The position numbers and the translations under genes were made by a program. The notes beneath the pieces were generated by a model that was not told where the DNA came from, searched no databases, and saw only the letters and a program-made list of their open reading frames with translations. Positions 1 to 55,546 of a DNA stretch of 55,546 nt are shown one piece after another. The stretch comes from Psammoneis japonica. Lineage: Eukaryota. The stretch is taken from NCBI GenBank assembly GCA_008632985.1, contig QPGO01000218.1, positions 62,001 through 117,546 of the forward strand, written 5' to 3'. Numbering within the stretch: the stretch's first letter is position 1; each line of letters opens with the position of its first letter.

Positions 1-460
1 ACAAAAAATGCACAAGCTTCCACCCCAGCAGCACCAGAGAACATGCTGGGGTTTCTGCAAGCAGAGCTGGGGGACAGCCGGGCACAGAGACGGTGTCGCA
101 GCTGATGCTCTGTGAGCAAACATTGCTCCCACCTTTGTTGCACTCTACACAACCATGGCCTACACTGTTGTGTTGTGCTTCAAGCCATTGTGCCAAACAT
201 TGCCACTGTGTTCTGAGCCACCTTGCTGGTCTCCAGGGGCAGGAAGGAGCAGGCACCCCCACCAGGCAGACAAGTGGCTCTGGGGCATTGGGGGCAGTTC
301 ATCTTGACACTTGACAACCATGCATGATGACTCCACAGCATCATGTTGCTTGGAACAGCATAGAGTGACAACAACAGTGTGGTTGGAAGCATGAGACGAG
401 CTGGGGAAGCAAAAACACACCAACCGACAATGGGAAAACCAAGAGAAGAATTCAACTAAT
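1..460. repeat. Edge of a TpA/CpG-depleted, TG/CA-rich degenerate repeat domain
   Basis: Same composition as the decayed TE blocks downstream (few TA, abundant TG/CA). No coherent protein. Confidence 0.55.
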
Positions 461-3228: not shown

Positions 3229-11043
<7,815 letters not shown>

Positions 11044-11475
11044 GGACTGGTGTAGGTGCAATCAGAGATTAGAACTCGGCGATGAAACTGCTAAGGTTAA
11101 TATAAAAGTAGTTGCGTAAGGTCGATCTCTAGTACAGTAGGTACTGTAGAGGTAGCGCCATTGTGCAAGGTGCGGACGAAGCGGCAAGCGCCGCCGCGAG
11201 AGCCAGAAATTCTTGACGTACGATTGCAAGACTTCGTGTCTGTCATTCATCCGATCTCCACAGTGACGTGCAATCCGAATCCCGATGACGCCTTTTACGA
11301 ACTCCGCGTCAAGTTGCAGGTGGCGCGTCACGATCTGTCTGTGATTCGTGACACCCACTGCTGGCATTTTCGTTTTTGCAAGAGCGAACAAAGATCGAGA
11401 GCATCATCACCGCAGCCATCACAATTCCATCATAAGTTTTGATTGCCGTTGCGTTTCGATCCTTCTGACTAGATC

Positions 11476-22763: not shown

Positions 22764-23864
22764 CGTGGTACCACCTCCAATTTAGCGGTTGGCTCTTGCC
22801 ATTTGCTATTGTATCATTTTGCAGAACCCTTGAGAATCCACGAAGGCAAAGAAAAGATCCAGCATAGTACCACCCACCCACCCCTCCTCGCACGACCTAC
22901 AGACTGCAGACACCCAGCCACCGGCCGCATCTTGAAGAATCTCACGAAGGCCTAAACTTGTGCTTTTCGCTAACTTGCCGTCATCAATCAAAGAGTCTAT
23001 CACAAGCGTTAGAAGTCGCCTAAAGCTCATCGAGTTGAATACAATGGCTATCCAGCAGTTCCTCACATCCAGCCACGGTTACATAATGAGTAGGATTTGT
23101 ACAGTAGAATTCGTTGAAACACACTGTACGACGTCAGCAAGAACATCTGTTACACTTGGCAGTAGATCGAGATATGAGGCGTCATAGTCGTACAAACGTC
23201 GTATAGTCGTAGTGGGTAGAACCGACTTCAACTACGAGATACATCATCGCACATTGAACTTCCACAAGATGTCGTTCCCGCTGACGTTCATAACCTCACC
23301 GGTGTGATGCCGCTGCTGTTAGCAGCACATCCCAATGTAGAACGCACGAGCGAACGATGACGTGTCAAGTAAATCGAGACGAGCGATCTACAACGTGTCG
23401 GGTCCGTCAATCATGCACGGAAGTTTGCTTCAACCCTCATTTTTCATGAGATCTGAACTTTTGCAAAGGAAGACTCTCCAGCCATCTCGACACAAAGCAT
23501 CGCCAGTTGCAGCTGAGACAACATCTGCGGGGACCAGAATGCACTGGTCGCAGAGTCTGCAGAGACCGGGAAACACCGGTTGCAGATTTGTCATTTCGCA
23601 TTCATTGTCATTCATTGCACTCTTGACACACTGAAGATTCATTGCACACACTCGTCCAGAAAACACTGGAAGTGGACCCTGCAGTGACTGGGAACACCAG
23701 TTGCAGGTCGGATCATCTGCCATCTGTTGATCATGTTGACTTTACTCAGATTGTTCTCATTGCAAGTCTCATGGGTCGTCGTGTTATCTGGTGTGCACCT
23801 GTTGCTGCGTTGTTGGCTCAACTTGTCTTTGCGCAGTGTGAGCCTGCCGTTGCAAGCTGTCTCA

Positions 23865-24632
23865 TGGATGACAGCAACACCAGGCACCGAGACAACACAA
23901 ACAGACGTTTTGAGAAGCTTCATTGCAGGAATGGAAACGAGCACGTCTCTTGGGTTTGTTTGGTGTGTGACAGATTGTCAAAACCGTCTCAGACTGCTCG
24001 ACTTTCTGTCAATGGATTGAATGAAGCCAGACACCTGTCAACTCCATCTGAATGGAACCAAGTGTCGGAAGACCTGCAAGATTGTCATCGCATCGATGAC
24101 GACCATGTTCCACGGGATTGCCGATGGATTTCCAACCTGTCACTTTCACCAAGAGCTCGACATGTTGTTCCGAACGACAACAGAAGGTCTGAAGGATTCA
24201 CTTGTTGCAGGCCTTGTAAAAGAAGTCTCTGCACTGCTTCTATGTCTTGTGGATGACAGCAACACCAGGCACCGAGACAATGTAAACAGACGTTTTGAGA
24301 AGCTTCATTGCAGGAATGGAAACGAGCACGTCCCTTGGGTTTGTCAGGTGTGTGACAGTTTGTTAAAACTGTCTCAGACCACTCGACTTTCCATCAATGG
24401 ATTGAATGAAGCCAGACACCTGTCAACTCCATCTGAATGGAACCAAGCATCGGAAGACCCACACGATTGTTGTCGCATCGATGACGACCACATTCCACGG
24501 GATTGCCGATGGATTTCCAACCTGCCACTTTCGCCAAGAGCTCGACACATTGTTCCGAACGACAACAGAAGGTCTGAAGGATTCACTTGTTGCAGGCCTT
24601 GCAAAAGAAGTCTCTGCACTGCTTCTGTGCCT
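23865..24632 (+). repeat. 385-bp tandem duplication within the Helitron (23865-24249 and 24250-24632)
   Basis: Both copies start tggatgacagcaacaccaggcaccgagac and align throughout, with about 15 differing sites. Confidence 0.97.
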
Positions 24633-27600
24633 CCGTGCGCAATGGCAAATGATTGCTGTTTTGGAACACCACCACCTGAATTATCGTGTCTTACCGAAGC
24701 AGAACTAGCTTCATCGACACCTGTGAAAACACATGGCTGCTGCTTCAGTTTTGTCGGTGGCAAACAGAAGAAACTGCAAGGTGGTCTTTCCCATTGCAAG
24801 ATAAACACAAAGAGCATCGCCCGCACCATTGTGCACTTTGACGTGTTGAACCTTCATCAAAATGTGGTTGTGTTGGCATCCGGCAAAATGACACCAGAGC
24901 AAAGGCGAATGGCCAGACAAAAGAACAAAATCAGGACTCACCATGTAATGAGAGCACTAGAATGGCTTGTCCATCACCACGAGAATTGGATGAATCAAGA
25001 CATCGATCTAGAGGAAGTGCGAAGTAATTTACAGAATCCAGTTTTAGTGGACAATGGCAGTTTAGACGAAAGCGAAAATGCAAACATTGAAACCACGGAG
25101 TCCCACAGTGTTCATTTCCCCGATGGCACCGTTTCTTCAACAACTGGTGGACAACGTAATTTAGACAGCTTCAAAGACTTGGTGCACGATGCAGCTGCAA
25201 GCGGTTTTGACATTGAATTCAAAGCTGATCTTTTGAAAGAATCAGTCAGTGACTTTAAGGACAACAACCTGGCAAATGCTTGCTTGCTGCAATTTCCTTG
25301 TGGGCGTGGCGGCATTGATGAAACAAGAATGAAAGAAGACGGGAGTCTCGCCGACTGTGCAAATCTAGCACATTGCGCAGATCACTTGGCCCGCATTTCT
25401 CAGCCCCATTTCCACAAGCAACTCTTTGTTCTGACCCTGTGCAATCTGACTGTGAAGCAACGAATGGTGCACAGTGCTGGATGGAAAGCAAGAGACAAAA
25501 ATCAAGCCAGACAATTCTCAAATGAACTGACACAAGACGACATCGACAGACCGGTGAACGCAGGAATTGCACATTGGGACATCGTTTCTTAAGTGCAGTG
25601 GATGTGGTGTCGGCATCTGTTCCACATGCAAATGAAGCAGCAAAAAAAATGAGAAGAAATGCTGAAACCTGCCAACACCACTTTGGACAACCTGGAGCAT
25701 TTTTAACGACAAGCCCCGATGATGCCAATTCCTTTTTAGTTCAAATTCACACGGACATGCTCATCGACAAAGGCAGAGATGTGACAGAAATGTCGGATGA
25801 AGAATTGGCCGAAAAGGCCAAGGCAAGAAACGAGCTTCGTGTGGAGCACCCGGGTGTCACGGCTTTTGCATTCGAAATGTCATTGGAAATCGTCACAGAA
25901 GAAGCAACAGGATGGGACTTAAAAAGGAATTCACCCAGAGAAGATTTTGAATTCTACGTGGGGAGACCCTCCGCTTTCATAGCTGCAATGGAAGAACAAG
26001 GTAGACTCTCGGCACACGGTCACATTCAGGCATGGTTTGAAGACACAAACACAGCAAGAGACAATCTGCATTCTGACAACAGAGATTTTAGGCGTGATGG
26101 TAAAAGAACACTGTCCAAACTGACCAGTCGGATCTGCACAACTGGGTTGATGTGCAGCGAGGATTGCACTCGACTGTCCATCATAGAGACTTTTGATCAT
26201 GATTGCACTGTTAATCTTGCCTGTCGTGCTGTGCCTAAAATGGTCAGCAATCAGCAGCTTCGATGCCCAAGGCACAAGCACGGTCAGAAATCAAAAAACG
26301 GCATGTTCGCGCATTGCCCTCATTGTGCTAAATGCTGGACAAACCCAGAGTTTGTGGCATGTTATTTGTTGAGTGACAACCGCGTCCCTGGTCTGACTGC
26401 TTGTCCAGACAACACAACAAAGAGACTTGAAGCCATGTGCACTCAGTGTCAACAATCCGATGAGAATGGGACAATCGAGCCATGCACTCCAGATGCTGCA
26501 TGCAGCCATCACATGCATGCCAACATCGCTTGTTTTTCTAAGCTGAAACAATTTCCAAAAAATGGAAAAAATTCCGAGAATGAAATGACCACTGGTGGAA
26601 GCGCGCGCAAGCGTAAATTGCACGAGATGCAAAATGCCGATTGCCGTTTCAATCTCCCCGCTGCACACAGCAAATGCAATGTAATCAGGAAAGCTCATGA
26701 TGCAAAAATTAAGTGGTTCTCTTGGGATGGCTCATTCCGTTGTAGATGCGTCAAAGAAATTGTCCCCAAGAGGAGAAAATGCGATGCTTTCCAGAATGTG
26801 TCGTGCCCTGCAATCAGCAGATCTAAGCTGACATGCAACACAAACATCGCAACTCTGATGCCAGGCCCCTCTGCACAGTGCACCATTGAGCACACACTCA
26901 AAGACACCCAAAAGGACGACACTGCCACTTGCCAAGAAGTGCTGAATGTCACTGACAAACTGGTGACAGAGCTTAGAAAGCATTCTTCTGATGCAGCGGA
27001 AACTGTAAGAAGATTGCTCTGGAGTGCTCATGCTCACAACAAAACCAACGTCATCAGACCGCCGCTTGCATCGTGCATTGCAAGAAACAGTGGGCGTTTT
27101 CTAACTTCTCATCAAACTGCATGGTGTCCACTCAAAGACATCACAAACATGCTAGAGAACGAAACAGTGTCTGCAATGGTTTCGCATTTCGGGGAGACTC
27201 CGTTCTGTCAATGTTTGGCCTTACATTGTTTGTGTCGACCCACACAAATGGAACATCTGAGTCCGTTTGTGTTCTGCAGAGCCCAAGTCTTCCACTTTCA
27301 AAGCCTGTTTAAAGGACCCAACCCAACAGATGACAGCTGAGGAAAAAGAGAAACACATGCTCGGACTGAAAGTGGCCCAACTGCCATTCACAATGAACAA
27401 TGCGACTGCAGGACACAAGCTTCAAGGAAGCGGTGTCGACAATGTGTTTGTGCACAGCTGGAGCTGTGCACAAAACTGGGCACATGTCATGCTCTCCAGG
27501 GTTGAGACCAGAAATGGTCTGCATCTTTGGCAACCGCTGAAGAGAGATTTAAGTCTGTGCAGACTGCCGGACGGGCATGACGCCCTGCTCCGGTTGATGG

Positions 27601-27662
27601 AAGGAAGAAGTGTCACATGCTTCACCAACGAACAGCATGATGACATTTTGCAGTCCAATTGA
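23865..27662 (+). mobile_element. Decayed Helitron-like RepHel element (DUF6570-like region, HUH Rep, C-terminal Pif1 helicase fragment)
   Basis: Motifs LSPRAR...MANDCCFGTPPPELSCLTEAE, LLQFPCGRGG, FGQPGAFLTTSPDD, EEQGRLSAHGHI (HUH), CRFNLP, degenerate motif 3 QCTIEHTLK, and Pif1 end NATAGHKLQG...AHVMLSRVETRNGL. Termini not identified. Confidence 0.85.
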
Positions 27663-28461
27663 CAAATGGAACATTTTGATGCTGCATGTGGGAATTGTTT
27701 CTACATTTTGGAAAATGTTCCAGGCTTCACACGCGGGCTTGCAGGCGTGCCCGGCAACAACCGACAGAAAACAAAGGGTCCAATCTAATGAATCGGTGTT
27801 GGCACATTGTTGCAATGATGGACACACTCAGCAACCAGTGATGCACAACGTTGGGACAGTTCTCTTGTCATCCACCATAGAACGATCACACCAGAATCAT
27901 CAAAAAGGGGAAACCCACGTCTCTTCTTGTGACACATCCATGCACGAACACAAAAATTAAATCGCCATTTTTTGACACAACATTGGAACATTGATGTAGA
28001 ATCACGTCGCACATTAATTGATTGCGAACCCATCATTCAAGCGTGTGAATTTTTTAAAAAATGATTGGTGGCAAGTAAAGATCAAAGCTCTAAAATTTGA
28101 TGCTCGCGCGCATGGCAATCCAAACCAGCCCGGGTTCCACACCTCCTCACTTCGTGTCCAGAGTTCCCACCACAAAGGAGGAACCAACATGAGCCAATCT
28201 AGAGAGTTGCGCATCCGAAGGCAGCATGTGTAATTCTGGAGCACATGAGTCTTCGATGGCATTTAGACAAATGGCAACTCTAGGCGCACACCGTGTTGCA
28301 TCTAAGAAACTGTGACAAATTTTTGAGCTTTAACAACAGCCACACGTCCCGCTCTCCGCTCATCAATTCCGCGGCAGACTGTCATTTCGCCATGCCCCAA
28401 GTCGGAAATGAATCTTCAAACGAAGTCCCGGAACTTTCAACTCACAATGTGTCACATGCAG

Positions 28462-31689: not shown

Positions 31690-33330
31690 AACGAGCAAGA
31701 ACATCATGACATGCATGCTGTCAACTCTTGGTGTCGGTGGCATGGTCGCGCTGCGACTCTCCCGGCACTGCAGCTGTGCTCACATTTGGGGAAATAGCAT
31801 GATTTTCTGAATTTCACTGTGGTGAAAATTGACAAGCACGCAACAAGCATGGTGGTGCACCAGGGTTTTGTTTCCTTGTCGCCCTCCCTCCTCGATGTTG
31901 CCTTCGTGCACACATCAAAGGCCAGGTGCTGCACCTTGGTGCAGAGCATGTTTTTGAGAACAGGACAAGCTGCCATCATGGGCAGATTGTCTGCACAAAC
32001 TGTTTTTGTTGCTTTGAACATGGGGGGCACTGCAAAAGGGGGCCCTTTTCTTTGACACTTTGTGGCTGTTTCTGAGAGTGCACATGCGGCGGGAAATGGC
32101 AACCACACACGCAACTTCTTGCACTGTCATTTCACTTGCAAAAATTCTCTTGCTGTTGTTGAGCAAAACAGTGCATTGTCTCTCTCAGTTTGGCCAGAGT
32201 TTGAGAAGAGGAGCTTGGTTCCCAGCTTCCAGGCTCTTTTGTCTGTGGCTTGAGTTGTCATCAAAGATTGACAAAAGTGCTGAACAGCAACCTCCACCTC
32301 ACTGCTGGGGTGCTGTTGGGGCACCACTTGCACAATGGCCCTGTGTGTGCAAAAGAGAACACCCCCAGAGAGAGAGACATGTTTGTTTTGTGGGCAGCCA
32401 AAGGAGAGGTTGTTGTGGCAGCAGGTTCACAAGAAAGCCAGCTGTCTTTGGGTTGATCAAGCTGCATTATTTTTGTCAGCAAGTGCCACACCATGATGTG
32501 TGTGCAGAAGGCTTGCAGCTCTGTGCACACAGCGTTGCAGAGAAAACTCTCAGCACTGCTGCACAAGTTTTTTGGCTGTGTTGTGCATGATGTGATTTTT
32601 GCAAATTCCCTCAACCTGAATGCTGATGCACATGTGCATGTAGTGCAGCACATTTTACACAACAACCAGCAGCCCACACAACTGTCAGCAAACACAGCAG
32701 GGGCAAAAGTTGTTGGCTCACCGAGAGGGGCAGGCCTCTGCTCCTGCCTCCTGCATCTGACTCAACCACCAGCACATGAGCCAATGGCACCGATGAAGTG
32801 AACAAACACTGATGCAGTAGAAAGGACACGCCAACACCTTCTTGTGGATAAGAGTGAGTGTAACAAAGCCAACGTGAACCCAATCGTTGCGCCTTGGTGC
32901 ATGAGATGCAGGCCTCTGCTCCTGCCTCCTGCGTCTGACTCAACCAGCACATGAGCCAATGGCACCGATGAAGTGAACAAACACTGATGCAGTAGAAAGG
33001 GCAAGCCAACACCTTCTTGTGGATAAGAGTGAGTGCAATGAAGCCAACGTGAACCCAATCGTTGCACCATGGTGCATGAGATGCAGGCCTCTGCTCCTCC
33101 TGCCTCCTGTGTCTCTGACTCAACCAGCACACGAGCCAATGGCACCGATGAAGTGAACAAACACTGATGCAGTAGAAAGGACAAGCCAACACCTTCTTGT
33201 GGATAAGAGTGAGTGTAATAAAGCCAACGTGAACCTAATCGTTGCGCCTTGGTGCATGAGATGCACCAACAAGGGTGGTGAGAATGACACGGTCACACAA
33301 GTGACGAGGGACAGACCACTGCTGGACCAC
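31690..33330. repeat. TpA-depleted degenerate repeat or TE remnant between TGS1 and the next gene
   Basis: Abrupt loss of TA, TG/CA-rich sequence, Cys/His-rich spurious ORFs. Contains a tandem array. Confidence 0.7.
32730..33265. repeat. Three tandem copies of a ~177-bp unit (starts 32730, 32908, 33083)
   Basis: The unit gcaggcctctgctcc...gagccaatggcaccgatgaagtgaacaaacactgatgcagtagaaagg...ggtgcatgagat occurs three times. Confidence 0.97.
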
Positions 33331-44043: not shown

Positions 44044-46070
44044 AGAAACACTCGTTTCGCTTAGGTTAGGTTTGCAACGAAAATTAGAATTGCATTCCTA
44101 GTTATCTGCATACAGGATGCCTTGATTGATTCTCTCTTCATTCTCTTTTATTTAGATTGGCTAATCAAGTCTGAGGAACTACCAAAAGCTGGGGTAGACA
44201 CCTGTTCCCCTTGTGAGATCGATGCTGTGGGTTTGGTTTTAAGAATCAAATGAGAGCATTTTTAACGCCAGTCGCACCAACAGCTTGACGATCGGTTTTG
44301 TGGACCACCATGACTCTTTTTGCCAACAGGAAAGATGCAAAAAGTTGGCTCTGAACTTGCATCGAGCAATGCAAGAAACTCTCCACTGGCACTGGGGATG
44401 CAGGCACTGATGATGCAAGAGCGGCCCAAGATGCCGCTTCAACTGGCGCTCTAGCTCCAAGCAGCTGGGATTCGACAAAAGGGCAGCCACAACTTTCTGG
44501 CAGTGTCACACTGCAACCAGCCCTCTCTCTCTCTCTAGAAGGACGACTCTGTCTTGAGCCATTTCATGTGTGTTGCAAAGAAAAGGGCACTGGCAGAACA
44601 TTGCACAGTGATGGCTGTGGCTCCACAATTGGCAAGTGACATGTTCACCTCAACCACTGCACTCCCTTTGCTTTGCCTGCATTGCAAAACCACACAGCAG
44701 TTTCAAAACCATGCCTGACATTGAAAACATGTTGGCATCAACTCTTTGAGGTGCATGTTCATTGCCATGCTCTGTCATGGCCAATCACCATCATCTCTCA
44801 TCTCCGCACCACTTTGCCAGAGGTGACATGATTGCGGCAAGAAAAAGGCAGACAAACCTCTGAAGAAAGATTTCATGTCCACCAAACAAAGCAAGTGTCA
44901 CTCTTTTTCTACATCATCCATCATCTGCATGAAGCATCTGCTAACTTGTCATGTGGTGGCCACCAGTGTGGCTGCAAAATGTCATGCTGTGAGAATGGAA
45001 AGACCCACGACCCACCAGTGGAAACTGTGCAGGGCTGCCCAAACTCTGTCATTGCATTGTGGCCATGTGTGAGTCCAAAATGTGGATGGGCAAATGCATC
45101 AAGCCAGTTGTTGCAGCCAAGCAGACAGCAGAGAAAACATTTCCACAACACAGAGAGAAACAATCAAGCAACAAAGCTTTTGATTGTCTCAGTTCTGCAC
45201 AGAACACAAGAAGCAAGTGTTTTTGTGAAAGATCTCAAAGTTTGCTGAGTGCAACAAACATGAACAAAAGAGATGGGCTTGCCAATCTGCTGGCCCCTCA
45301 ATGGGATGCTCTCCTCCTTTTTTGATTGTCAGTGCAGTGCATCATGCACATCTCTGCAATCAAGCAGGGAGCTGACAAATGCTGTTGAGACATGCACAAA
45401 ACATGCCCTCTGACTGAAAAAACAAAATTCTGTTCACAATGGTGGGGGGCTTGGTGCCACACAAACAGGCTGCTGCTTTTTGCAAGGTCAACAAGAGTGC
45501 AACATAAAATCATTGCCATGCTTGGTGCAAGGGACAAGAGCTCATGCTTCCCTTCCTTGTGGTGTGCTTGCAAGTGCTTTTTAAATGCACAACTTTGTCT
45601 GTTCAGTGCAAAGCTGTCAAACCGGCAAGTCAATGTTGCAAAAGGAGGGAGAGCCCCGTTGGTCAGTCACAACAATGGCTGTGGGTTGCCAGTGGTGTTG
45701 CTGCACACTGTGATTTGTGTGACAACAGGTGCCTGCCAATGCTGAGTGACAAATCATGCAAACCCAATGATTTGCTCCAAAGAGTGAGATGAAACTGAAA
45801 GGTGAGAGATTGCTGACAGTGAAACCTCACTCATGAAGAGTTGCAAAATGAGCTGCATCATTGGCCACTGCATTTTTTCTTCAACACATCCAGGTTCTTT
45901 ACATTTCCCACAACCTGGATGCTGTTCCAACAAAAGCATCAAGAAAATTGCATGCACTGCACAAAGCAGCAGAAATTTCACTTGCGTGCTGCAGAAGCAG
46001 TGCACACAGCTGCAAGAAGCCCCCCAGTTGTTGGAGTTTTGCAGCTTGCCAGCCAGTGTGCATTTAGTGT

Positions 46071-47808
46071 TGCCAATCCTGAGCTTGCTGTGTGGCTTGC
46101 AAACACATTTCCTCTGTGCCATCATCTGCTTTTGCCATGTCAACCAGGTGCAGAAGCCAAAAGGTCAAAGGGAGCGCAAGACCCACAACTCAACCCAAGT
46201 TGAGAACACAAATCCACCATGTTGTTCACAATCATCAGCACATCTTACACTGCAATGTTGACTGTCCATCCTGCAAAAACTGCCTTTCACCACAATGTCC
46301 CAACACACTCCTTTGCACAAGTCATCAATTGGTTGGCCTCAGGAGGCACATCAAAAAGCATGATGGGAGGACGACACTTGGAAACCATGCCATTTAAACT
46401 CTGCCAACAAATGACCACCATTGCTGTTGAGCAAAGCACAACCCCATTTCACATGCCCAACCTTGCAACATTTCCATGGTTTAATCTGCTTTTTCTCATT
46501 CTGCACAAAGCTTGCACTCTCAGGGTTTTTGTTGAAACCACAAGTGTCCAACACATGCAATGCCACCTTGGCAACATTGGAGCAATTGCCACCCCCAGTG
46601 CAACCTGCTGATGTGTGTCTTTCAAGACATGCCAACATTCCTTCTTGGTGCCTTCTGTTGGTGTTGCAACCAACAACTTGTCCTTTTCTTTGTCATGGGT
46701 GTTGTGAGCATCCTTGCCAAACCCATCTTCTTTGTTGGCAATTTCTTCTGGGACAATCATCATGCCACAGGATGCTTTTGCCATCTCAACAGTGCCAGCA
46801 AACCAACCACAATGACATTGAAGCACCTCTCCTTCATCTTGATGAATGTGTGCTGACTGCTTTCAAGCCTTGACTGCCTGAACATGTGAGCACATCTTCT
46901 TCTCATTTGCATCAAACAAAGTTGACTTGACAATTTCCAACAGCACCACCACACCCCCCCACTCTTTCACCACTCTTGCACACTCTGTTGCTGCTCCTTC
47001 AATCTTGTGACAAAGGCCTTTGCACAGTGTCCCACAATTGCGTTGAATGCCCTTGCCTTCTGTGTCTTGTAGAATGTGATCTGTTCACACATGGTGATCA
47101 CATTGCTTGCCCCAGATTGTCTTGTCCTTCTTCAATGTGGCATCTCCCAATGAACACTCTGGCTCTTTTGTGGCATGCTCTCCTGCCTCAGTGATGCCAG
47201 CACCTGCATCTCCAGCCCAAACATTCTTCCAACACACTTGCTGATCTTCTTGACGGTTTCTGTGCAACCATCTGCCTGTGAACCCAACTCAGCAATGGCA
47301 TCATGCACCCACTCCTTTGAATCTTTTGTGCTTCTGCATCTGGCGCAGTCCTTGAGATTGTTTCTTTGCCCTTGTCCACCAGCTGGCTTGTTTGTTGCCA
47401 CAATCTGCCACATGAGACATGCCTTTGGATTCTTGATGACTTCCCAGCCCCCATGCTCTTGTTCCTGATGACTTCTCAGCCTTTTCCTTTGACCCACACT
47501 GCTCCTTTGAGTGTCATGCTGTGACTTTTTAGCTTCTGTGTTGGAGTTTCACAGCTTGCCGACTGGCACATGTTTGGTCTTGCCAACCCCAAACTCACTG
47601 TGTGGCTTGCAAACACAACCCCAATGCTTGTCATCTGCTGTTGCCATGTCAGCCAGTGCAGAAGCTAAAAAGTGAGCAGAAGACCTGCAACTCAACCCCA
47701 AGTCATGAATGCAAATCTGCCACAAAGTCCACAGTCATCAGTGCATCATGCACTGCAACATTGTTTGTCTGTCTTGCAAAAACTGCCTCTCACCAAAATG
47801 TTCCAACA
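46071..47808. repeat. Diverged ~230-bp direct repeats (46071-46305 and 47581-47808)
   Basis: Shared blocks ctgtgtggcttgcaaacaca, ttgccatgtca, gtgcagaagc, caactcaaccc and tgcaaaaactgcct.tcacca.aatgt.ccaaca. Confidence 0.85.
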
Positions 47809-48979
47809 GCACCTCTTGAGCCACAGCAACCTCAATCTTTTCTTTCACCAACTGCACATTGCATGCAGATGAGTCAAGAGTGAGTTTTTGCTTGCAGTTT
47901 GTTCCCTTTCTCATTGCCACACCCGCATGGCTTCTTTGGCACTGCAGTGGTGATGACTTGTGTGGCTGCCACTGGTGGCTCCACTGCACTGTCTGGTGCT
48001 TCAGCATTGGTCACTGCCCCAAGAACTCCTCCTCTTTTCAGAGCAGCTCAGCTGTGTAGACTCCTGTCTACCTTTTCTCTAGTTCCTTTTTTCTGGAGAA
48101 GGGCTGGCTCTGGCCATCTCAGAGGACTCCCACCCCCATTTGGTTGGCACAACTCTCAAAGCAGCAGGGCAGTCTCAGCTCTGATCTTGCCTCTGATGAC
48201 ACTGCCATGGCAGCTGGATTGTCTGCAATGGCAAGCAGTCTGGCAAATGCCACTGCAGCACTTTTCACATGCATCCTTGTTGCTGACAATGGTGTTCAGC
48301 TCTCCCCTGTGGCCCATCTGAGTGCTGTGCTGCTCAAGCAAAGCTCATCAGTGGCAAGGCAATTCTGTTGGCTTGGGTGCACACCTCACCTTCCTCTGTT
48401 GTGGCAGCCACTTGGCCTGACTCTGTCATTGTGGCAGCCTCTGGTCCAAGTGTTGCAGCCACCAGTGCCACCCATGTTGTCTTGCCAAAGTTGTGGAGTG
48501 CAACATGCCCATGCTGAATGCTGGCTCTGGGACATGCTGTGCCTCCATCATCTGCCTCTCCTTGTTGTCTGCCAGCCATGTCATTCATGCATGACTCATG
48601 TCATTCTTTCAGTTCTCTAAAACTGTCAGACTCTTTCAGCCATGCCTTTGTTGTGTGTGCTTTGACAAGACCCAAGCCCTTTCTTGGCTGGCGGTTCACA
48701 GCAGCACCCCAGCAGCAGACATCAGCTGCCTTTTGGCTTTGTTTGCAGGCTCTGTCTTTGGCAGTCATGTGGTCCTTGCCCAGAGCACTGTGAGAGTGAC
48801 TTGCCAGTTCCATCCCAACCTTTTGGAGGCCCAGGCAGGTGCAAAGATCCAGTGCACTCTCTCTCAAATGAGGCCTGAGTGTGCCAACTGTTTGATGTGC
48901 AGCTTCATCAAATCAGTGATGCAGAGCACTGCAGCCATGCCAGCATCACATCACACCAATCAGACCCCACCTGCATTGC

Positions 48980-51850
48980 GCAAGTGAAAAAAATGGATTG
49001 GTGCTCTCATGACCAATCTTTTGTTGGCTTCACACCCAGAAAAAGCAATTGCTCTGCAGAATTCTGTGGCAATTTGGTGCTGAGCTTAGCCAAGACTTTT
49101 CTGTCTCCCCAACAGCAATCCCCAACCTCACATTCATGACTGCAGCATTGGTGCAACAAAGTGAATTGGAAGAAAGAACTCCTGTTGTTGTCTCTGTTGA
49201 AAGAGGCCCGCGACAATGCTCCAAGTGCTTTCAGCAACAAAAAATGTGGAGTCAACCTTTGCCACTTTCCAACAGGTTCAAGAAGTGCCAAGACTGTGAA
49301 ACTTCATTGTTGGAGACCAGTTTGTTGTTGGGCCAAGTGTGGGTGACTTTCAGAGACTGCCTCATGAAAAAAAGCTGAAACCATTTTGCTCTAAAAAATG
49401 ACTGCCTCAACCAAAAGCAAAGTTTGTTGAGGTGGAGTCTGGCTCACATGTGGTTGAGCACAGTGGCAACAAAGAGTCACTGCAAGGTGTGCTGAAAGAG
49501 GTGCCCCCCCCCCCAGCTGCAAAAAAGTGTGCATGGAAAAGATTCTATGTTTTGTGAGTTGCGTGGCATCTGTGCAGCACAAAGATCATCAATGGCAAGA
49601 TGTTGAGCAGTGGGAACATGACAACACACACAAACATCAGTCTTTCTTATCTCACTCTTTTCTTGTGGGGAGAAACAGGTGATGGCCTCATGTGAAAGGG
49701 GGGAAGGACCAAAAATTGCTGAGGGTGGGGTTGAAAACAGCTGCCAAAAATTGTTTCAGAAAGTGTTTTGAAAGGTGCTCATTCTTGCCATGTCTGCCGT
49801 GCATTGACAACAGTTTTGTGCCAAAGGGATGAAGTGCCGCTTCTGAATGGAAGCTCCACAACCAGTCAATTGGCAACAACTGCACATGTGCTTGCAGGCT
49901 CTGTCACTTGCAACCTTGTTTTGCTGGATCAAGATGAGTCCAAGTGCTGCAAGTGCTGGATTGTCAGCTTGGCCAACATTGCCATCAAAGCTTTCAGAGC
50001 ACATGGGGGGCTGGTTCTTCATCAGATGCAAGAATTGCACTTGGGATGATTGCCATGTGTTGCTGGAAGCAACAGCCAGAATTGTTTGGACTTGAAGAAG
50101 AACCTGCCATCTGCACACCAGTCAAGAAGCTGTTTGGGTTGAATGAACAACCCAGGCCTTGATGATGGCAAAAAAGCAGTGCTGCCATTGGCAATCTTGG
50201 CAAAAAACCAAAGAATGACTCAATGGAGGGCAAAGCTTTTTGAAGTGGAGCCCAACTCATGTGCAGTTGAGCACAACAATGACAAAGAGGAGCCACTGCA
50301 AGGATGACTTAAAGTGGTGCTCCCAGTTGCAAAAAAGGTGAGCAAAGAAAATTCCGCACAGCTCCAAGCTGAGAAGGAGTCTTGTCCAGAGCTGCTTGGC
50401 ATCTGCACAAAGAGTTTCCATTTGCACTGTGCAAGCAAAACAGCAAAGTGTGCAAGGCTGGACACAATTGTCTGCTGTCCACACCAGACTCTTTGGTGAG
50501 GTCTGCATGTGCACCCTTGCCCACTGTCTTTTGTGCGCGCACCATTGTTCTTGATCATTTTGTTGAACCCCGCCATGACCAACATGAGAAAGTGCCACTT
50601 GATCTTGTTTTGCACTCTTTCCCTGTTGTGTGCAATGGATGATGGCTGCAGAAGAGACAGACTAAATCACCAAAGGCAAGATTGAAGACACCACAAAATT
50701 GTCTCAAAAGCATTGGAAGGTGCCCATTCTTGCTGCAGGGCACAAAAAAAAGTTTCTGGGAGAGAAACACCACAAAGAAGGGAGAAGCCACTTTTCTGAC
50801 AATTTTGCAGTTGCTTGGTCTGGTGAAGCAAGATGCTTTGCATTGCAACATGCCGTTGACAGCACTGCCAAAGCAACCAGCAATGGGCACAATGTGTGTG
50901 CTGCAAATGTGCACCAACAGCCTCCACACACCCAAGAGCAGCATTTCAATGTGAAGGTGTGGCAACAGATCTGTCATTTTTGTCACAAGAGTCTCTTGAA
51001 CTTGCCCTTGGAATGCTCCAAAGAAGCAAAAACTGCTGGCTGTCCGGAGCAACTCATTGTCAAATTTGTCAAAAGCACGCTTTGCTCCAGTGTGCAACTT
51101 TGCACATGAAGGGTCGTGTGTGTGCAATGCAAAACTCCATTTTTTTGTCTTTTGGTGTGCAGGGGGGTTCATTGATGGTGGCACTGTGCCACAAAACACA
51201 AAAAGTTGCACATTTTAGAGAAAAAGTTGCAGCACTGTGTTGTCAAGCAACTCAACTGGCTGCATGGCATTTTTCATGCTTTGCAATTTCCCCTCTGAGA
51301 AAAGAACTTCAACTTTGATGATGTGACATGCCAGATGTGCACAAAAAGCTGCAAAATGTTTCAGAGATCTGAGCTGGAAAGCACCCCCAACTGACTTGAT
51401 GCTTGTTTGCACTTCTCATTTTTGCCAATCACCAGCTGCAAGAAGGTGTTGCTCAAAACAGTCTGCTGGGCATGGCAGCACATCATGGGCAGGGGCAGGG
51501 CATTCTTCCACCAGCTCAACGTGCCAGTGTTCAACTCCCCACAATGCGTTGCTGGTGACTCTGCAGAAGTTGAAAAGTCTGGCATCCTTTGAGAATTTTT
51601 CTCAATGCTTTGAGCTGTCAGCCCCAAGCACAGATGATGATGCACCATGGACAACTGCAAAAAATGTTTTTGTTGTTCTCCAGGGCACAACGTGGAGAAG
51701 AACACCAAGCATGAGCTGCTCTGGGGGAGAACTTAGATTTCCTGTTGCACATCAGATTGATGAAAAATCCATGGCGCAAACCTCAGCAGCCAATGACTTC
51801 TCATCGAGGTTGCAGTTGCCACCCTAAAACCACCACTTGTGCTGGTCTTC
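48980..51850 (-). mobile_element. Possible decayed Plavaka-like DNA transposase remnant
   Basis: Scattered minus-strand fragments (CGELNTG, FDKFDNELLRTASSFCFFGAF, VWRLLVHI, FGDLVCLFCSH, ESFDGNVGQ...LIQQNKVASD) recall the motif order of Plavaka-type transposases. Heavily degenerate, recognised by eye only. Confidence 0.35.
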
Positions 51851-52699
51851 AAAAGCTCCCACACAGCTTGGCTTGAGCATGTGCAGTGCACGGCAAAGGA
51901 GGGAGGCTGCAATCATGAGTTGCTTGCCAAAGAGGAGGATGCAATCAAACACTGTTTCTTCCAGCACTTTTTGTTTTTGGTCCTGTGAGCTTGAGTGGCT
52001 TGTGCATGTCAAGCACAAAAACAGGACAGATGGACAAGTGGCAGATTGGGCTGTTTTTTTTTTTGCTGCGTGCGCAACATTTGGTGAAGTCAACCTCACT
52101 TGGCAAAGTTGACAGTCATCTCTTGATGACATTTGACATCATTGATGACTCTGCTGTGATGATCCTCATTGCCTCTCAATGAATTCAGCAGGGCTGTCTG
52201 CAGCATGCATTGTCAAGCAGGAAGAAGCACACATGTTTTCACAACTGCACATTGTTGCGTGCATCAGTTGCACTGCAATCATGGGTGCATGCAAAGGACA
52301 GACAAATCACACAGATTTGATCAGATGTCAAAAACTGCAAATGTCATCAATCAATGATGTTGACACACAATTTGTCAGTGCTTGTTGCACTGCAATCAGA
52401 TTTTCTGAATGGCCTTTGGAGCAAATGGCACACTTTGGGCCGTTGAGAGCTCCTTCAGAGAAATCCAAAATTGCAGCACAAAAAATCCAATCTCATGATT
52501 TTCTGCTTTTTGTGATTTGCTCCACTTTCATTTGCACTCATTCTTCAAGCATGGTGCATTGTGTGCATGCACCACAGAAGGCAAGTGCACAAAATTGAAG
52601 CTTTCACCCAATGCGACTGATGCCAAGTCTTCTGTCAAGTGAGGGACAGTTGCTCTGGTGCCCCTGAAAATGATTTCCAAGCCAAAGTTGCTCAAATGA

Positions 52700-55546
52700 A
52701 GCCAGTGCCTCAAGATGGAGCAATCTTTTTATCCTGAAGACAAGAAGAGTTGCACCCACACAATCAATGTCAAGAACTGCAACCAGCGGGGAGTCTGCTC
52801 CAAGTGTGTCAAATTCTTGAAGACTTGCCATTGATGCTTGGTTGGCCAGAACATGCAAAAGCAAGCCAACAAGTTCCATCTGATGCAATCAATGAAAAAC
52901 AGCAAGTTTCCAAGTGCATCAAATTCTTGAAGACTTGCTGTCAACTTTTGGATGGACAAAATGTGCAGAAGCAAGCCAACAAGTTCCATCTGATGCACAT
53001 GTTGTTGCAGGAGATGCTCTCCAAGTTTTTGAGAACAAGGCTGCAAAAACACATTTGCTTCAAAGAGGCAAAGACGCCTTTGAAAAATGCCTGTGTTTCC
53101 TTTCCAACCATGTTTCCCCCAAAGAGTGCACTTCAAAATCAGAAACGGCATCTGTGGCATGATCTCAAGAAGCCATCAGAGACCATGAAGATCTGCAAAG
53201 CTGCCACTTGGACTCAGGAAGGAATGAACAAATGTCTCAAGTTCCACCCTCTTTTTGTGCCAAAGCAGAATCTAGAGGACAAAGATGAGCTTGAGAACAT
53301 TGTCTGCAACCTTGCACCTCATTGATGGTGCTGTCAGTCAAGCTCACAAGGTCTGGAAGTTCACATTTGACTGGACTAATGTCAAATCTGATCACAACAG
53401 CAAGGCTGGGTTAAAGTCAAAGATGGGCTCAATTGCAGCTCCAAAAATGGTTGCCAATCTGGTGCCGAACATTCTGATTCCAAGATGTGGTTCAATCATT
53501 GCACATGGGCCACTCATGACATGGATCAATGTTGGGTTGATGGAAGACTGGCAAACTGATGCTGAGAGAACTTTGAACAAAACCCAAAACAGCAATGTTC
53601 AAATGGCAATTGCAGGTGGTCTTGCATTGTGACACTGAAAATGCCTTTCCAAAGGAAGAGTTGAATGCCATGATCACTCAGCCAGTCAACAAAACCCTCA
53701 AGACAAGTTCCTTGACATGTGACAAAAAGCACAAGGGCAGACATTCTGACTGTGATGCACTTGGCAAAGAAAACTTCCAATTTGAGTGCAAATGATGCAC
53801 AGTTGTTTTGAAAAATGACCAGCTTCTGTTGAGGAGTCTTGCACATGACTGGATGTCAGCAAGCCCAGAAAAGGCCAAAGCAACTCACACAGGTCCAGCA
53901 GTCATTGCTCACATGAACCCCTCTTTGAGAAAAGAGAGGGGTGAGACTCTGCATGTTCTTCTTGATGGTGAAACATCATCAACTGCAATTTTGTGCAAAT
54001 TCACGTGGAAATTGAGAACCAAAGAATCTGCCACCAAGACTTGGAAAACCAAGGGTGGACTCTTTGCAACTGACAGCAAATGCAAAATGCAGTTCTTGTC
54101 ACCTGAATTTGACAAGCACAAGCCCATTGACAAGACAACACATGCTCATGGCATGCCCTCTTCTTCGTGTTGATGTGATGTGATCATGGGACACAACCTG
54201 ATGAGCAGTCTTGGAGTCACACTCAGCTCCACAAATGTGATTAGAAGATGCTGTTGTGCCAACAAAGAATGTTGGCACTTTCTTTGATGCTGATGTCTTC
54301 AAGCTGATTGCCAACCACATTGAAGAGTCTGGTGCTGTGAATGGTCTCAATGGCAAGACCAATGGCACCAGGATCCTTGATGCCAACTGTCATGCTGGCA
54401 ACCTCATTGATGTGGCTGACAGCCACAGAGTCACATCTCACCCCAGGAGAACAGAAGCAACTGAACTCTCTTTTAAAAAGATTTGAAAAGCTTTTTGACA
54501 GTTCCTCAGGTGTGTGGAAAGGAAAACCAGCAGATCTCATGTTGAAATTGGGCATGACTCCACATGATTTGGAGCCATTTCCCACACCACAAGCCTTGGA
54601 GGCAACTGCTTGAAAGGAAGCAGGCAGACTCTGTGAAGCAGGAGTCTCAAAGAAAAAAAATGGACCACTCTGAATGGGCAGCTCCAACCTTTGTTCAACC
54701 CAGGAAAAATGATCAAGTTCGGTTCCCACCCAACTTTTAAAGAGCTGAGAGGGAGGCTGATGTGCACTCCACACCCTTTGCCCAATGTTTGGGATGCACT
54801 GCAGAAACTTGAAGGTTTCATGCATGTGACCTCATTTGATTTGACCACGAGATGCTGTCACATCAAGCTGACATGGGGTGCATGTGTCATTTGTGCATGA
54901 TGGTGATGCTGCAGGGCAAATGTGAATGTTGCAGACTCCTTGTGAGAATTTCCCCCCATCATTTTTTGAGAACACATGGGCAAACTCATGGCAGGTTTAG
55001 AGTTTGTCAAAACTTGCTGTGTTGATGTCATGCTGTGCCTGACAAAAAGTGACTTCAAAGATCAACTCCAGAAACTTGAGGAGACATTCACATGGCTCAA
55101 ACAAGCCAGTTTGAAGGTCAGTTCCAAGAAGTCCTTTTCAGCTGAGCATGATGCAGACTGTCCAGGCTTTCATGTCACCCAAAATGGTGTTGCACCACCC
55201 CCCATGAAAGTGGGGGCAATTCAAGCAACTGCAACTCCCAAAACTCACAAGGAGCTGCAATGTTTTGTTTGTGTGGTCAATTGTTGTCAAGACATGTGGC
55301 CTCAACAATCTCATGCACTTGCTCTCCTCTTGCCAAACTCACCCAAACAAAGGTTGAGTGGCAATGGATGAGCACGGAACAAAAAGCTTTCAAAAATGTG
55401 AAGAGTTGTGTCAAAGGACGTGTCATCATCACACCCAAATTTTGACAAACTCTTTGAGCAGTGTGCCAAAGGAAAAAAATTCTAAACTGGGAGCAGTCAC
55501 ATCACAAAACAATCAACCTGTTGCTTTCCACCGCTGCAGGTTAAAT
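52700..55546 (+). mobile_element. Decayed Ty3/Gypsy LTR retrotransposon (gag-protease-RT-start of RNase H), running off the window end
   Basis: gag-like FPPKSALQNQKRHL..LKKP; protease LHVLLDGETSS...WKTKGGLFAT...PEF; RT SEWAAPTF, PHPLPNVWDALQKLEGFMHVTSFDLTTRCCHIKL and LMAGLEFVKTCCVDV; RNase H start LGAVTSQNNQPVAF. Confidence 0.88.
52801..52997 (+). repeat. 110-bp-period tandem duplication in the gag region
   Basis: caagtg..tcaaattcttgaagacttgc...aagcaagccaacaagttccatctgatgca occurs at 52801 and 52911. Confidence 0.9.

Follow-up and report, generated by a model that had tools for sequence, protein, structure and literature searches.

A 385-bp tandem duplication inside a dead Helitron of a diatom carries a site-by-site record of hypermutation at TpA dinucleotides. 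Most likely, a local tandem duplication (known from the assembly) was followed, independently in each copy, by the loss of TpA through A:T->G:C transitions, a loss which is restricted to certain zones, prefers T-A-Y and probably reflects the deamination of adenine. The following steps are proposed: (i) a segment of 385 bp would have been duplicated in tandem inside the dead, internally deleted Helitron; (ii) after the duplication, each copy would have lost about nine tenths of its TA via A:T->G:C transitions at TpA; (iii) hits on the A of the + strand would give TG and hits on the A of the - strand CA, so that a site struck on different strands in the two copies would today read TG in one and CA in the other; and (iv) the process would work in place in the chromosome, taking single sites on either strand, confined to particular zones and sparing the DNA of the host.

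The DNA under analysis (the window) is a stretch of 55,546 nucleotides. It is gene-dense, with long open reading frames (ORFs), and contains a PRP8 gene at 3229-11061. For the four pieces of this gene, identity amounts to 82-97% with two diatom entries (Pseudo-nitzschia multiseries and MMETSP 'Dacty..') and to 58-91% with further stramenopiles and with a cryptophyte, a plant and a fungus; none of the proteins listed is identical. Judging by these identities, the host is a diatom (stramenopile).

At 23858-24633, Tandem Repeats Finder (TRF) reports an array with 2.0 copies of a 385-bp unit (91% matches, 0% indels, score 1335), and a separate repeat search returned the same pair (Table 1). Since 385 = 3x128+1, the frame of copy 1 is shifted at the junction and, in consequence, the duplication itself breaks the frame. 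The part of a full-length relative (P0150) that aligns with copy 1 comprises residues 21-196. A short similarity (CTGT..) recurs on either side of the array and at its junction.

Table 1. Position of the features discussed in the text.
Feature	Position	Strand	Basis or remark
Helitron-like insertion, 5148 bp	23042..28189	+	Run X1 contig across the empty site; Pfam
TA-poor zone inside the insertion	23390..27950		11.2 TA/kb; TAY/TAR 0.32; CG at the usual level of the family
Copy 1 of the 385-bp unit	23858..24242	+	TRF, gap-free comparison; codes for ~128 N-terminal residues of the Helitron protein
Copy 2 of the 385-bp unit	24243..24627	+	TRF, gap-free comparison; shares its frame with the DUF6570 region downstream
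ORF piece 1, N-terminal region and DUF6570	24243..25592	+	P0150 residues 21-599
ORF piece 2, Helitron_like_N / Rep region, different frame	25526..27340	+	P0150 residues 464-1104
ORF piece 3, C-terminal end of the helicase	27261..27662	+	P0150 residues 1782-1911
TA- and CG-poor zone, at least 11 kb	44545..55546		Internal diverged repeats with TG<->CA doubles
TG<->CA doubles (n=9)	23863/4, 23896/7, 23995/6, 24007/8, 24063/4, 24075/6, 24086/7, 24106/7, 24163/4		
TA-versus-CA/TG singles (n=4)	23898, 23979, 24217, 24242		
CG-versus-TG/CA singles (n=2)	23985, 24148		
Polarised double	24086/7		Copy 1 CAT / copy 2 TGT; consensus Tyr 14/15; ancestral codon needed TAT
Polarised double	23896-8		ACA / GTA after AAC / AAT; consensus Ile 11/15; ancestral codon needed ATA after T
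Polarised double	24063/4		Copy 1 GTG / copy 2 GCA; consensus Val 9/15; ancestral codon needed GTA
Polarised double	24075/6		Copy 1 CTG / copy 2 CCA; consensus Leu 9/15; ancestral codon needed CTA

In a gap-free comparison of 23858-24242 with 24243-24627, the copies differ at 30 of 385 positions. Eighteen of these positions form nine double differences in which TG stands against CA; the remainder are the four TA-versus-CA/TG singles, the two CG-versus-TG/CA singles, 3 other transitions and 3 transversions. If every double derives from TA, 22 of the 30 differing positions are of the TpA type. The original prediction had put the TG/CA sites at about 8 of ~15 differing sites: the doubles themselves stand, and all six examples quoted for them were found, but the counts do not, the exact figure being 9 of 21 sites. 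The four sites which it described as having TA left in one copy were all found as quoted, with TA kept in copy 1 at 24217 and 24241 and in copy 2 at 24283 and 24364. When 30 random substitutions (26 transitions and 4 transversions) were placed on copy 1 in 20,000 simulations, the mean number of doubles was 0.32 and the maximum was 4; no simulation produced at least nine, the number observed. The excess of TG<->CA doubles between the copies is real and lies far past chance expectation.

TG and CA are, in any case, also the products of CG->TG and CG->CA, and the doubles could have arisen from ancestral CpG through the deamination of methylated cytosines on opposite strands, that is, by the classical decay of 5-methylcytosine (5mC). 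The polarity of the repeat sites was read from a protein alignment with 16 relatives, in which the consensus residue indicates the codon needed. This comparison with relatives, which had been put forward as a check, polarises four of the nine doubles (Table 1): all four need TA and none needs CG. The other five fall in Ile/Val or variable columns and hence receive no polarity from the relatives, which means that a minority of the doubles could derive from CG. Three of the four TA-retaining singles can also be polarised and, each time, it is the copy with TA that bears the consensus residue (Ile, Leu in 11/15 and Met in 11/16); the fourth is synonymous. The two CpG-type singles of the repeat speak for some CpG decay, and one of them, at 23985, is a genuine CpG->TpG change (CCG->CTG in copy 2, with Pro as consensus in 12/15). 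The restored peptide 'QVSEDL.DYYRIDDDYIP' that had accompanied the claim of a TA ancestor goes too far, since the Cys that precedes the H/C site is conserved in relatives (consensus 'CY') and is no former Tyr.

The columns of the whole element lead in the same direction. Against the 16 relatives, the mismatches comprise 24 explained by TA only, 4 by CG only and 43 by neither, next to 171 matching columns. Against 22 other full-length relatives, the corresponding numbers are 29, 5 and 61 (n=95), next to 284 matching columns, and the ratio of 29:5 has a binomial p of 3.9e-5. In the latter set, a Tyr consensus marks 19 columns, of which one still reads Tyr in the element while 13 read Cys, 3 His and 2 Phe; of 25 Arg-consensus columns, by contrast, 21 retain Arg (Fisher p = 2.3e-7 for Arg versus Tyr). 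Conserved Tyr residues are mostly kept in 16 of 16 relatives that come from metagenomes (7 to 15 per locus), while the copy in the window keeps 0 of 15. Another relative (P0004, a JGI record) bears the same damage, all 13 Tyr being replaced (6 by Cys, 5 by His and 2 by Phe) and all 20 Arg being intact; the hypermutated Helitron copy in the window is thus not unique.

A third line of evidence comes from the classes of sites. No TA is common to both copies, whereas 14 CG are. Under a model with one loss probability per copy and a random strand for each hit, the counts for TA (9 opposite, 4 one-sided and 0 intact sites) agree with p = 0.91 per copy (goodness of fit 0.81), while those for CG (9 opposite, 2 one-sided and 14 intact sites) are rejected (goodness of fit 5.7e-7): with 14 CpG intact in both copies, nine double hits are impossible at one rate. 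The TA fit implies ~9 hidden sites altered identically in both copies, and three such sites are visible by means of the consensus (24423, 24525 and 24546); taken together, they allow most of the TA loss in the repeat to postdate the duplication.

Outgroup proteins, whole-element columns and site classes all favour ancestral TA over CG, and support the claim that a palindromic TA was struck on opposite strands in the two copies. They also bear out the suggestion that mutation went on independently after the duplication, with ~91% of TA lost per copy. A CpG origin of the doubles has some further facts on its side, namely 4 CpG-type positions among the read variants described below and the near absence of CG from the zone at 44.6-55.5 kb. 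Nevertheless, in view of the polarised doubles, the retained Arg residues, the intact CpG sites and an element that matches 16 unmutated relatives in CG density (35.5/kb versus 32.1/kb pooled over them), this origin is largely refuted and there is only a very slim chance that it accounts for the doubles. In-place CpG decay of the Helitron, suggested by its CG odds ratio of 0.64 (observed/expected dinucleotide frequency) versus ~1.0 in the host, was likewise rejected, as the 16 relatives are at an equal level (0.27-1.21, a range that brackets the value of the element).

The context of the loss was determined by counting the base 3' of the A on both strands, for the Helitron versus its 16 relatives and for the zone at 44.6-55.5 kb versus the host. 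The survival of TA in the Helitron and in that zone, respectively, is (i) 0.56 and 19% for TAA; (ii) 0.39 and 14% for TAG; (iii) 0.18 and 2.4% for TAC; and (iv) 0.06 and 1.9% for TAT, the context effect in the Helitron comparison having a chi-square p of 5e-9. The TAY/TAR ratio is 0.32 in the Helitron zone and 0.17 in the second zone, versus 1.25-1.29 in the host and 0.80-1.56 in the 16 relatives. By these counts, the target is T-A-Y. Changes of Tyr to Cys outnumber those of Tyr to His 13:3 (p = 0.02), and raw frequencies are 94/kb for TG and 106/kb for CA; a strand bias deduced from the 13:3 excess was dropped, since the T-A-Y preference predicts such an excess for TAY codons. No strand-coordinated clusters were found among the 29 polarised sites (12 runs versus 13.4 expected in a runs test). 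A comparison of the 5' neighbours of mutated and retained sites was set aside, being confounded by the ascertainment of the sites.

The repeat also offers a measure of relative rates. Since the duplication, 6 differences have accumulated at ~325 other positions and 2 at 16 CpG sites, while ~91% of the TA sites changed in each copy. As a rough estimate from small counts, the mutability of TpA per base is ~100-130x that of other positions and roughly 35x that of CpG; for CpG in the repeat it is, with the same roughness and small counts, ~3x that of other positions.

The window contains four zones that are poor in TA and rich in TG and CA: 1-400, the interior of the Helitron, 31701-33100, and ~44545 to the end of the window. 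Host blocks have 36-40 TA/kb. The odds ratios of the element are 0.18 for TA, 1.74 for TG and 1.47 for CA, and the TA value compares with 0.33-0.83 in the 16 relatives. The loss of TA is local, as it is confined to the interior of the insertion and the three other zones, and non-coding DNA of the host is spared. It could be argued that nothing is targeted, and that TpA is highly mutable throughout the genome but the result is visible only in dead DNA because selection shields the host; TA is indeed moderately under-represented inside the long ORFs of the host (odds ratio 0.53). Against this, the introns and spacers of the host, 6.7 kb of sequence beyond the long ORFs, contain 50.5 TA/kb, with odds ratios of 0.70 for TA and 1.03 for CG. 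The edges of the zones are, furthermore, sharp: TA occurs every ~15 bp until 23389 and then only twice in the following 830 bp, and the other edge lies at ~44545. The first 348 bp of the very same insertion are undepleted (63 TA/kb), which means that the element was not treated alike throughout. General mutability of TpA is therefore very unlikely as an explanation, and zone restriction is retained as part of the preferred reading.

The zone at the end of the window shows the same TA signature taken almost to completion. Within 44600-55546 (10,947 bp), 35 TA and 50 CG are found versus 1260 TG and 1283 CA, that is, 3.2 TA/kb, and diverged repeats internal to the zone differ by 10 and 4 TG<->CA doubles. 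CG is also lost here (4.6/kb versus 58.6/kb in the host), and so a second process, or a wider specificity, must have acted in this zone; 5mC decay at CpG is probably active there. A Pfam search with 71 ORFs (19 + 52) of the zone at 44.5-55.5 kb gave nothing credible, only sub-threshold matches to unrelated families. A homologue search with the ORF at 54970-55371 found none; in a protein atlas, the same ORF falls among reverse-transcriptase clusters (30 of 30 matches, the best at 0.96) and, as a lead only, it is possibly a remnant of a reverse transcriptase.

With respect to the element that houses the repeat, a contig of run X1 matches the window up to 23041, and of its next 30 letters 29 are those of 28190-28219. 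This contig represents an empty site, ...AATA joined to TGAGCC..., with the insertion between A and T and no target-site duplication, and the joined flanks form a single open frame on the minus strand. The segment 23042-28189 is thus taken to be a 5148-bp insertion that coexists with the empty site in one sample. DUF6570 (Pfam, E = 2.8e-14) lies in a broken frame with the repeat at its start, and Helitron_like_N (Rep; PF14214, E = 8.2e-9, above the curated cut-off) follows beyond a frameshift. Of the Pif1-type helicase, the alignment with full-length relatives covers just the final ~130 residues (31 of 43 conserved columns match), and the ORF at 27261-27662 has no Pfam match. The insertion is degenerate, with two frameshifts and a deleted helicase core (residues ~1105-1781 of full-length relatives are absent). 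Its protein relatives include 29 at up to 53% identity and 800 cluster representatives, the full-length ones being ~1900 aa long. Canonical Helitrons begin with 5'-TC and end with CTRR-3'; such termini were not found in the insertion, whose ends read CAATGG... and ...CCAACA.

Three runs (X1-X3) of one sample, possibly the source of the assembly itself, provided short contigs of ~100-300 nt, and those of run X1 were compared with 23000-25600. All 20 variant positions listed are transitions: 9 are TA<->TG/CA singles, 6 make up three TG<->CA doubles, 4 are of CpG type and 1 is of another type. One of the three doubles is due to cross-mapping between the two units of the repeat. The same type of difference thus separates other versions of this Helitron DNA in the sample, and these may be alleles or paralogous copies.

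Such versions raise the question of whether the repeat is an artefact of the assembly, in which two diverged haplotypes or paralogues were set in tandem. The sample does hold further versions, as 119 of 380 contigs are 95-99% and 111 are 90-95% alike; a 100-nt contig shows 5 differences from copy 2, on which it lies, and none among the contigs listed spans the junction of the copies. On the other hand, the array is exactly head to tail and gap-free, and the CTGT.. similarity at the flanks and the junction is what slippage or unequal exchange would give. Contigs cover 30 of 30 bins, the junction included, and a joint lacking one unit was not reported, although this point is weak because the contigs are short. 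An artefact is, all in all, quite improbable. Were the repeat an artefact, the units would still descend from one sequence and the inference on mutation would hold, but the statement that it took place after a duplication would not. A true local duplication remains the reading followed here.

Regarding the chemistry, the direction TA->TG/CA, the specificity for TpA, the preference for a 3' pyrimidine, the action on either strand one site at a time and the restriction to zones are shown by the sequence. The change itself would come about when an enzyme, probably a DNA adenine deaminase, converts adenine in DNA to hypoxanthine, which replication then reads as G. The candidates would be a tRNA-adenosine-deaminase-like enzyme (ADAT2/TadA-type) or another deaminase aimed at silenced foreign DNA; no deaminase gene was found in the 55,546-nt window. 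Enzymes that deaminate the adenosine of tRNAs see A after a 5' U or T (U33-A34). Dioxygenases of the TET/JBP type exist, as does the miscoding of oxidised thymine. The T of TpA could accordingly be oxidised by such a dioxygenase (to 5-hydroxymethyl- or 5-formyluracil) and miscoded as C: the products are identical by sequence, T->C on one strand being A->G on the other, and the favoured context would read R-T-A on the other strand. Nevertheless, a 5' T together with a 3' pyrimidine resembles the context of tRNA adenosine deaminases and of a TadA-derived editor described as preferring 'YAC' (PMC13109818), which makes chemistry on the thymine side rather unlikely and adenine deamination the probable route.

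Changes at the RNA level, that is, ADAR-type editing of double-stranded RNA fixed through reverse transcription, would share the 5' preference, since ADAR is stated to favour a 5' U (bioRxiv 10.64898/2026.01.13.699255), and one heavily mutated zone may carry the putative reverse-transcriptase remnant. But the 3' preference observed is for a pyrimidine, Helitrons have no RNA intermediate, and the tandem units diverged from each other on one DNA molecule, with TG and CA outcomes in each. The anatomy of the repeat excludes RNA editing for the tandem repeat, and its probability as a general account is negligible. The lack of an RNA stage and the presence of both units on one molecule show that the process acts on DNA in place.

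The tandem repeat amounts to a built-in comparison of before and after, which shows action on the chromosome itself, the use of both strands and the site-by-site mode, and which also yields the relative rates. A:T->G:C change at TpA opposes the usual GC->AT bias, and the T-A-Y preference offers a handle for the search of the enzyme; a natural DNA adenine deaminase would be relevant to base editing. Tyr, Ile, Val and Leu codons disappear from hypermutated transposons, which evade Pfam, and so the annotation of repeats in such genomes needs mutation-aware searches. The finding of the signature in a diatom, from a group of dominant marine primary producers, suggests a process which is widespread or has evolved repeatedly. 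More speculatively, and with considerable doubt, a diatom genome-defence system might mark transposons and foreign DNA and erase T-A-Y by adenine deamination; it might be homologous to that of Bigelowiella and form part of an old, SAR-wide 'adenine RIP' which, together with CpG decay, leaves old insertions free of TA and CG. If so, DNA free of TA and CG would evade domain searches and may account for a large share of the 'dark', unannotated repeats in diatom genomes.

Several known systems can be compared with the case described here. As a Helitron, the insertion has DUF6570, Helitron_like_N and an A/T insertion site without target duplication, but it differs in its ends (CA... and ...ACA instead of TC...CTRR) and in the deletion of the helicase core. 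Like fungal RIP, the process makes transitions in a dinucleotide context, in place and on both strands, and turns transposon genes into pseudogenes. Unlike it, the direction is the opposite: RIP changes C->T mostly at CpA and creates TpA, whereas in the diatom Helitron TpA is destroyed and CpA/TpG are created. In the element, TA is depleted while TG and CA are in excess, and Tyr codons are lost, not gained, which is not the pattern of RIP. 5mC deamination at the CpG of silenced transposons also leaves TG and CA as end products in silenced DNA only; its substrate, nevertheless, is CG, whereas that of the repeat is TA, and CG was rejected as the source of most differences. TadA, ADAT2-ADAT3 and the DNA adenine base editors derived from TadA deaminate A after U or T, a likeness which concerns the context only.

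The closest likeness is to the chlorarachniophyte Bigelowiella natans, for which TpA->TpG/CpA hypermutation has already been described once, in a 2026 preprint. According to it, 231 of 302 nuclear point mutations in mutation-accumulation lines fell in two integrated viral regions; those in the viral regions were nearly all A->G or T->C, all of these being on TpA; and the genome holds 124 clusters that are poor in TpA, rich in CpA+TpG and enriched in transposon domains (bioRxiv 10.64898/2026.01.13.699255). An ADAT2-like enzyme was proposed for B. natans, and DNA activity of ADAT2 was cited in amphioxus and Trypanosoma (bioRxiv 10.64898/2026.01.13.699255). Both systems share (i) A->G / T->C changes on TpA that give TpG or CpA according to the strand, in foreign DNA only (Mettrop et al., 2026); (ii) normal rates in host DNA, with an excess of two to three orders of magnitude in the foreign DNA; and (iii) the clusters left behind, poor in TpA and rich in CpA+TpG. 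They differ in the host (a rhizarian versus a diatom), in the target (an insert from a giant virus or virophage versus a Helitron and unidentified repeats) and in the evidence, which consists of de novo mutations in lines for B. natans and of the sequence signature alone for the diatom. The terms 'diatom', 'CpG', 'Helitron' and 'trinucleotide' have 0 occurrences in the main text of the preprint (bioRxiv 10.64898/2026.01.13.699255), and no report of TpA->TpG/CpA hypermutation in diatoms was found in the literature, as judged by titles and the openings of abstracts. The preference for a 3' pyrimidine, the near-saturation and the loss of CpG in the oldest zone are features of the diatom window which are absent from the preprint text. 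New here, then, are the diatom host, the transposon as target, a preference for T-A-Y, the distinction from CpG decay and the estimate of the rate.

The degenerate 5148-bp Helitron insertion (window 23042-28189), whose interior is poor in TA, is not uniform in composition. Its first 348 bp (23042-23389) are rich in CG and in TA (63 per kb), and the rest of the insertion differs. Seven TA sites within this segment carry TA to TG/CA variants in the short contigs assembled from run X1, the reads of one sample which is possibly the source of the assembly. In consequence, other versions of the segment have been mutated and the window copy of it is unmutated. One X1 contig connects both flanks of the Helitron (23041|28190; 29 of 30 letters equal) and, therefore, the empty site is also present in the sample. 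When joined, the flanks form a single minus-strand open frame, approximately 125 codons long, suggesting that the insertion disrupts a small host ORF. As for the coding capacity of the element itself, approximately 680 residues of the helicase core are missing from this copy (residues ~1105-1781 of P0150, a full-length relative of the Helitron protein; window 27340-27261 region), and the leftover C-terminal helicase piece aligns well (31 matches in 43 conserved columns).

Other parts of the window are also TA-poor, including two short zones that are low in CG as well and rich in TG/CA (see the table). Separately, TA and CG are both nearly absent from a zone of at least 11 kb (44545-55546) that extends beyond the end of the window: dinucleotide counts for 44600-55546 are TA 35, CG 50, TG 1260 and CA 1283, and the few TA that remain in the zone are chiefly in TAA/TAG. 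A Pfam search with 71 ORFs of this zone gave no credible family; as a lead only, the ORF at 54970-55371 was placed among reverse-transcriptase clusters in a protein atlas. Regarding the host, the PRP8 gene has an identity of 82-97% to two named diatom entries, which puts the host within the diatoms.

Host gene, short TA-poor zones and tandem repeat in the window
Feature	Position	Strand	Description
PRP8 gene	3229-11061	-	Split by three short introns into four long ORF pieces
TA-poor zone	1-400		TA 7.5 per kb, CG 10 per kb; TG/CA-rich
TA-poor zone	31701-33100		TA 6.4 per kb, CG 16.4 per kb; TG/CA-rich
Tandem repeat, unit ~175-180 bp	32725-33285		In zone 31701-33100; between TGS1-like gene and next ORF

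Among the relatives of the Helitron, the protein P0004 (JGI record, 866 aa; 49% identity) keeps none of 13 conserved Tyr (replaced by 5 His, 6 Cys and 2 Phe) and all 20 conserved Arg; judged from its residues, its damage matches that of the window's Helitron. In three metagenome loci carrying relatives (L010, L012 and L004) the TA odds ratio is on the low side (0.33-0.37), but the Tyr codons are retained and TAY/TAR is 0.94-1.04; the scarcity of TA in these loci resembles ordinary composition rather than hypermutation.
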